Notes under the pieces: model-generated
The model's input: only the letters and a program-made list of their open reading frames with translations
Databases searched by the model: none
What the model was told of the DNA's origin: nothing
Made by a program: the position numbers and the translations under genes
DNA from: Escherichia coli
Lineage (GTDB): Bacteria; Pseudomonadota; Gammaproteobacteria; Enterobacterales; Enterobacteriaceae
DNA: 9,155 bases
Assembly: GCF_003334315.1 (NCBI RefSeq)
Contig: NZ_QOWR01000091.1
Reading direction: 5' to 3' (one strand)
Shown: in pieces, positions 1,448 through 2,331 of the stretch
Numbering within the stretch: position 1 is the stretch's first letter
Layout of the letters: the number at the start of each line of letters is the position of its first letter

Positions 1448-1524
1448 GCGCCCTTAGCTCAGTTGGATAGAGCAACGACCTTCTAAGTCGTGGGCCGCAG
1501 GTTCGAATCCTGCAGGGCGCGCCA
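1448..1524 (+). tRNA. argU: tRNA-Arg (anticodon UCU, reads AGA/AGG), 77 nt with encoded CCA
   Basis: Cloverleaf readable by eye: acceptor stem GCGCCCT/AGGGCGC, D-arm AGCTCAGTTGGATAGAGC, anticodon stem-loop ACGAC-CUUCUAA-GTCGT with UCU at positions 34-36, T-arm GGTTCGAATCC, discriminator G and CCA at 1522-1524. Matches argU (dnaY) as I recall it. Confidence 0.95.
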
Positions 1525-1569
1525 TTTCTTCTTCATTTATGCCCGTCTTATCCGTTTCCGCTTTGCCCT

Positions 1570-2331
1570 TCACCACATCACTTTTTGTCGCTGTTTGGCG
1601 AGATAATTCAACGGTGTCAGGCCGTAAAACGCCTTAAAAACAGAGATAAAGTACGACGTGCTGCTATAGCCACATAATTGCGCCACCTGAGTGGTATTTT
1701 TGTTATCCATCAATAACATCTGTACGGCGTAACGCATACGACACTCTGTGACAATCTGGCTATAGCTGGTATTTTCGTTTTTTAATTTCTTTTTGAGCAG
1801 GCTGGGGCTTAAACATAGCGAACTGGCGACAATTCGCAGATTCCAGTAGTGCTGAATATCGCTTTGAATAATGCGGCAGACGCTGTCGCGGACGCTGCTG
1901 CGTAAGATATACATCAGTAGGGCAATAAACCGCGATTGCTCAAGAAAGTTAGACAATACGGTAAAAAGCAATGCGCGCGTCAACTCCGCTTCGCAGGGTT
2001 TGCTGGGTTGCTGCTTGCTGTGGTTGGCGGCTAGCCGGAACACTTCCGGTGTACGGCTATGACAAGCGATAACCGGGGTAGCCAGCCGCGACCAGGGCTT
2101 TACACAGGTTAAGTTCTTATTTAAAAACAACAGATAATCGTTGATGATGTTACGGTTGATGTGGGTGATTAATACGTGATTTAACGTTGAGAGTTCAATG
2201 ACGTTATTGTTGCACGCGAAGGCGGCCAGGTAGTTTTTCGGAAGGGTAAACGTAGCATGGTTATTGACGCTTACCTCTACCTCTTTTTCGGTCAGGATCA
2301 CCACGCAAGGTTTACTGCTGCTCAATTGCAT
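1570..2331 (-). CDS. envY: EnvY, AraC/XylS-family transcriptional regulator (porin thermoregulatory protein), 253 aa
   Basis: 253-aa ORF with a C-terminal AraC-type HTH region (…YSQIVTECRMRYAVQMLLMDNKNTTQVAQLCGYSSTSYFISVFKAFYGLTP…). ATG at 2329-2331 is preceded by GAGGAG 7 nt upstream. Length and sequence match K-12 EnvY as I recall it. Confidence 0.9.
   Translation of the reverse strand: MQLSSSKPCVVILTEKEVEVSVNNHATFTLPKNYLAAFACNNNVIELSTLNHVLITHINRNIINDYLLFLNKNLTCVKPWSRLATPVIACHSRTPEVFRLAANHSKQQPSKPCEAELTRALLFTVLSNFLEQSRFIALLMYILRSSVRDSVCRIIQSDIQHYWNLRIVASSLCLSPSLLKKKLKNENTSYSQIVTECRMRYAVQMLLMDNKNTTQVAQLCGYSSTSYFISVFKAFYGLTPLNYLAKQRQKVMW

Follow-up and report, generated by a model that had tools for sequence, protein, structure and literature searches.

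What separates the tRNA gene argU from envY in this genome, and what does the shortness of this interval say about DLP12 and ompT, which lie between the same two genes in E. coli K-12? The window (the whole 9,155-nt stretch of DNA analysed here) carries a fragment of IS1, a remnant of sfmF, fimZ, argU, envY, ybcH, nfrA, nfrB and a fragment of ISAs1, in this order, and neither the ORF list nor a profile search revealed an integrase, a phage gene or ompT anywhere in its 9,155 nt. An earlier note on this DNA had put the distance from the CCA end of argU (1524) to the envY stop codon (1570) at 45 bp, which is exact. The features relevant to the locus are as follows.

573–1205, minus strand: fimZ, the left neighbor of argU as in K-12 (NCBIfam equivalog FimZ, 446 bits)
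1389–1416, plus strand: promoter-like site 5' of argU (TTGACT, 16-nt spacer, TATAAT; 11/12 of the sigma-70 consensus)
1448–1524, plus strand: argU, tRNA-Arg(UCU), complete (ARAGORN; Rfam RF00005, 72 bits over 1448–1521)
1480–1526: att core of 47 bp in a single copy, from the anticodon loop to the CCA end plus TT (longest exact attL/attR match in K-12)
1525–1569: spacer of 45 bp between argU and envY, of which the first 2 bp belong to the core and the rest to the bacterial right flank of the putative attB
1570–2331, minus strand: envY, an intact AraC-family regulator of 253 aa (250/253 identity to K-12 EnvY)
2514–3404, minus strand: ybcH (NCBIfam equivalog above cutoff; K-12 order)
3405–6398, minus strand: nfrA (NCBIfam equivalog above cutoff; K-12 order)
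6364–8601, minus strand: nfrB (NCBIfam equivalog above cutoff; K-12 order)

The single tRNA of the window, called by ARAGORN as tRNA-Arg(TCT) on the plus strand, aligns to K-12 argU with zero mismatches and has the cloverleaf with a UCU anticodon; the close consensus match upstream suggests that the promoter-like site may serve its transcription. The regulator gene to its right is orthologous to K-12 b0566, as indicated by the identity at 250 of 253 residues together with the shared neighbors ybcH, nfrA and nfrB, and RefSeq uses the label envY for the matching gene in genomes that are about 100% identical to the window at the DNA level. NCBIfam has no EnvY-specific model, and its best match for this protein is GadX, below the GadX cutoff. 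Two of the mechanically called ORFs are overlong at their start, namely, fimZ (573–1268, minus strand, 231 aa versus 210 annotated) and nfrA (997 versus 990 aa). The corresponding NCBIfam profiles begin only at residue 22 of the fimZ ORF and residue 8 of the nfrA ORF, so these extensions are calling artefacts; for FimZ, profile positions 1–210 align to ORF residues 22–231, and related genomes annotate a gene of 633 nt.

The nature of the interval becomes apparent when the window is compared to K-12. The 47-bp att core, CTTCTAAGTCGTGGGCCGCAGGTTCGAATCCTGCAGGGCGCGCCATT, has a single copy in the window but two in K-12, which lie 21,302 bp apart. Followed from the left, the alignment of the window tracks K-12 attL through the core and from there continues along K-12 attR to the right. 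Over 200 nt, the left flank differs from the bacterial side of K-12 attL at a single position but from the phage side at 161, and the right flank differs from the bacterial side of K-12 attR at 2 of 200 positions but from the phage side at 141 of 200. Within the spacer, position 1532 is the only mismatch to the K-12 stretch behind the attR core. We found no terminator-like hairpin in these 45 bp, and no ORF, integrase or phage gene lies between argU and envY. Removing precisely one core copy together with the 21.3-kb element from K-12 thus gives the arrangement of the window, and positions 1480–1526 almost certainly represent an unoccupied attB for DLP12-type lambdoid phages in the 3' part of argU, as far as can be judged from sequence. 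No observation speaks against this reading. Core, tRNA gene and both bacterial flanks are thus shared between the two genomes, but K-12 has the occupied form of the site with attL and attR 21.3 kb apart, whereas the window has the unoccupied form with one core copy. A 47-bp DLP12 attR resembling the argU 3' end has been described previously in a comparison of K-12 prophage loci (PMC6379469).

The absence of ompT follows from the same comparison. In the K-12 record, DLP12 is annotated at 564755–586056, starting inside argU with intD at the argU end, and both ompT (584680–585633) and appY fall inside the prophage at its envY end. The second copy of the core lies beyond ompT, at 43 bp from the envY stop codon, and a passage of a published review likewise locates ompT within DLP12 (PMC5723341). 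Because ompT belongs to the element, its absence and that of the prophage amount to a single fact. The earlier note had placed ompT between the prophage and envY, which is wrong, because the second core lies beyond the gene; its proposal of an unoccupied site plus a separate loss of ompT adds a needless event, as an empty site is without ompT automatically. What stands of its reading is that the argU site is unoccupied and that DLP12 and ompT are both missing from the locus, while a deletion with arbitrary ends does not stand.

Phage records directly connect ompT with this attachment site. Seventeen of them match window positions 1470–1536 around the argU core, 14 from Escherichia and three from Salmonella phages, and the core-bearing records include all 13 deposited temperate Escherichia phages that carry ompT (97.7–99.8% identity to K-12). 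Two of these 13, Kati and PhiR68_2, have appY and ompT arranged as in K-12. With their argU-derived attP core, the ompT phages (Kati, Turner, PhiR68_2, PhiR29_1, ev243, 2G7b and others) share the core at 1480–1526 with the window and constitute the mobile partner with attP and cargo, whereas the window is the empty chromosomal target without ompT. A chromosomal counterpart is found in Z1323PEC0010 (NZ_CP148282.1), whose envY–nfrB region is about 100% identical to that of the window and whose argU site is occupied by a lambdoid prophage. This prophage has a full run of tail genes (tape measure, gpJ, lom, tail fibre) and ends, at its attR side, with appY–ompT adjoining envY. As a side observation, it appears to be related to DLP12 but less decayed (L027 1–20554).

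Similar to what is established for DLP12 and for phages with tyrosine integrases, we infer that DLP12-type temperate phages would integrate at the argU core by site-specific recombination. Integration would duplicate the 47-bp core and place the phage between argU and envY, with the cargo gene ompT, and sometimes appY as well, at the end that comes to adjoin envY. A lysogen like K-12 would then read argU–int...appY–ompT–core–envY, and a non-lysogen like the window argU–45 bp–envY.

The short junction is widespread and not peculiar to this genome. Using a 341-nt query (window 1380–1720) and counting matches of at least 80% of its length, we found the argU–envY junction contiguous in 2534 of 5426 complete E. 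coli genomes, i.e., in nearly half. In an evenly spaced sample, all 19 full-length rows consisted of a single piece of 340–341 nt, whereas occupied genomes match the query only from its position 98 or 101, which is from the core onwards. The gene ompT is present in 3095 of the same 5426 genomes and absent from 2331 (43%). From these counts it follows that the empty junction and an ompT gene located elsewhere co-occur in at least about 200 genomes. One such genome is O157:H7 strain TR01, which has fimZ–argU–45 bp–envY–ybcH–nfrA–nfrB–ISAs1 at 0.66 Mb and ompT at 1.60 Mb of the same chromosome, in an IS-ridden prophage remnant near minCDE. This is the gene order of the window from fimZ to ISAs1, and sampled O157:H7 genomes match the 341-nt junction with 99.4% identity; but O157:H7 carries ompT elsewhere, while the closest relatives of the window have no chromosomal ompT. 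The surroundings of the TR01 gene (L025 5737–15285) contain an alpha/beta hydrolase gene, IS1203, ISEc8 and fragments of tail fibre assembly genes, and the pair of ompT and a neighboring gene of 1485 nt is also found in phage PhiR29_1 (L028), which suggests that the region is a decayed copy of a related phage at another site. A different situation was seen in the type strain DSM 30083 = ATCC 11775 and some others, where the match to the junction query is confined to its argU half (95.9% identity) and the envY 3' end is not matched anywhere, so that these strains either lack envY or differ on the right of the site.

The phage-free arrangement also extends beyond E. coli. In a search with EnvY against species-representative genomes, only Escherichia albertii gave an informative orthologous locus, and its type strain has the order nfrA–ybcH–envY–(160-aa ORF)–argU–fimZ without prophage and without ompT. 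We note that envY and argU are about 700 bp apart in E. albertii NBRC 107761, compared to 45 bp in E. coli, and that the AT-rich 160-aa ORF between them (L004 5597–6079, plus strand) matched no NCBIfam family. The EnvY homologs of Citrobacter, Salmonella arizonae/diarizonae and Kosakonia (57–63% identity) do not lie beside a tRNA-Arg(UCU) gene and are therefore uninformative on the junction; the E. coli representative was not among the matches. The empty argU site is probably the older state for the genus.

Among E. coli, genomes from humans, pigs, poultry, dogs, frogs and pangolins match the window at about 100% identity outside its IS1 junction. We determined the ompT status of such relatives from the matching places in each record, using 7.4 kb of the window (1300–8700) together with 160 nt of ompT as the query. 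The 42 closest genomes (at least 99.9% identity and a contiguous junction), which are E. coli of livestock, pets, wild and farmed animals and humans, each have one matching place and no chromosomal ompT. While the window itself covers only 9 kb, the finding that all 42 of these complete genomes lack the gene on the chromosome indicates that the source genome is probably ompT-negative, too. Four equally identical genomes have the argU site occupied with ompT adjoining envY, and near-identical backgrounds thus exist in both the occupied and the empty state. At 99.6–99.7% identity, the common laboratory and reference strains K-12, B, C and ATCC 8739 also have ompT adjoining envY.

Against this background, different histories can be considered for the empty site. 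The earlier note had offered, as the second of two options, a deletion spanning the prophage through ompT that happened to end a few tens of base pairs from envY. An illegitimate or IS-mediated event of this kind has some precedent in the region, because IS-mediated deletions do occur here: within the sfm operon, about 1 kb left of the site, an IS1 adjoins a deletion. However, the missing segment begins and ends precisely at the 47-bp att core, so that both flanks are the bacterial sides of attL and attR; argU is intact, the right flank is that of K-12 but for the one spacer mismatch, and the same junction recurs in 2534 genomes. An IS-mediated deletion at the junction was rejected because its ends are the att core and no IS element lies there, and we regard the probability of any chance deletion as negligible. 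The TR01 chromosome, with the 45-bp junction and ompT about 1 Mb away, and the prophage-free envY–argU neighborhood of E. albertii both speak further against it; the TR01 arrangement is precisely the kind of finding that the earlier note had set as a refutation of a deletion.

A second history, in which an ancestor had an ompT phage integrated at argU and lost it by Int/Xis-mediated excision, with exact restoration of attB, deserves to be taken seriously and may well apply, though we would sooner bet against it than for it. The four occupied genomes that are about 100% identical over envY–nfrB, one of them with a prophage that has a full run of tail genes, are compatible with such a loss, as is the presence of ompT beside envY in K-12, B, C and ATCC 8739, and a passage in PMC4632033 reports that DLP12 excision in K-12 is inducible by Hha. 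On the other hand, excision is scarless and hence leaves no positive trace in the sequence, the 42 closest genomes are all empty, and the empty state is found in genomes as unlike each other as O157:H7 and the relatives of the window as well as in the E. albertii type strain, whose envY–argU interval is prophage-free. A site that has never hosted a phage and one from which a phage was precisely excised leave an identical attB and are therefore indistinguishable by sequence; the same ambiguity between never hosted and lost is stated for Shigella and enteroinvasive E. coli (EIEC) in a passage of PMC5723341. The unoccupied attB is the common outcome of both routes.

The earlier note had also taken the ompT-negative, IS-rich context as a hint of Shigella or EIEC, i.e., of a pathoadaptive loss of ompT. 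Shigella and EIEC have been reported to be without ompT and DLP12 (Nakata 1993, as cited in a passage of PMC5723341), and the outcome at the locus is thus alike; two IS fragments in the window can be added in favor of this idea. Yet the empty junction is found in 2534 and the lack of ompT in 2331 of the 5426 complete E. coli genomes, so neither is specific for a pathovar, and an absence that is seen in 43% of genomes is no pointer to Shigella or EIEC. The closest genomes are animal and human E. coli, in a collection that comprises E. coli only and no Shigella. With the layout of IS1 and sfmF remnant also present in a urinary isolate, EcPF16, and the ISAs1 copy also present in O157:H7, nothing links the window to Shigella or EIEC; the supposed hint is not diagnostic, the state is common in ordinary E. 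coli, and we consider it highly improbable that the junction marks a Shigella or EIEC genome.

Both IS fragments can be followed into related genomes. The 3' part of IS1 ends at position 453 and abuts the last 117 nt of sfmF in the window as well as in EcPF16, which shares the exact layout of IS1, 117-nt sfmF remnant, fimZ, argU and envY. When window positions 1–570 were compared to NZ_AP021895.1, NZ_CP100930.1 and NZ_CP054224.1, we observed that IS1 interrupts sfmD in 2018-11-3CC, where sfmH and sfmF are intact, and that just the final 300 nt of sfmH are left after this same IS1 in ET670. These nested IS1-adjacent deletions in close relatives indicate that the sfm operon was inactivated stepwise while fimZ was kept intact. 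At the other end of the window, past nfrB, lies the 3' part of ISAs1, with a gene for an ISAs1-family transposase (8872–9155, minus strand; L026 38458–39594; L027 28370–29506). Beyond ISAs1, O157:H7 and close relatives have RHS/PAAR or metallopeptidase-toxin genes, and Z1323PEC0010 has vgrG. The ISAs1 copy is an old shared element and no sign of a recent IS expansion.

The feature is an ordinary and well-documented empty tRNA attachment site of a kind that is already known, and its value beyond correct annotation is small. It does correct a common mental map, since ompT and appY of K-12 are cargo inside DLP12 and not chromosomal neighbors of this prophage. The junction of argU and envY is the default non-lysogen state and should be taken neither for a virulence-related deletion nor for a Shigella signature. 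It is conceivable, though on the doubtful side, that this lineage recently lost a still-functional ompT/appY lambdoid phage by precise excision. In that case, near-identical strains would toggle between an OmpT-positive and an OmpT-negative surface by lysogeny and curing at argU, and OmpT status in commensal E. coli would be carried by a phage and quickly reversible. Either way, the presence of OmpT at this locus depends on prophage occupancy of argU.
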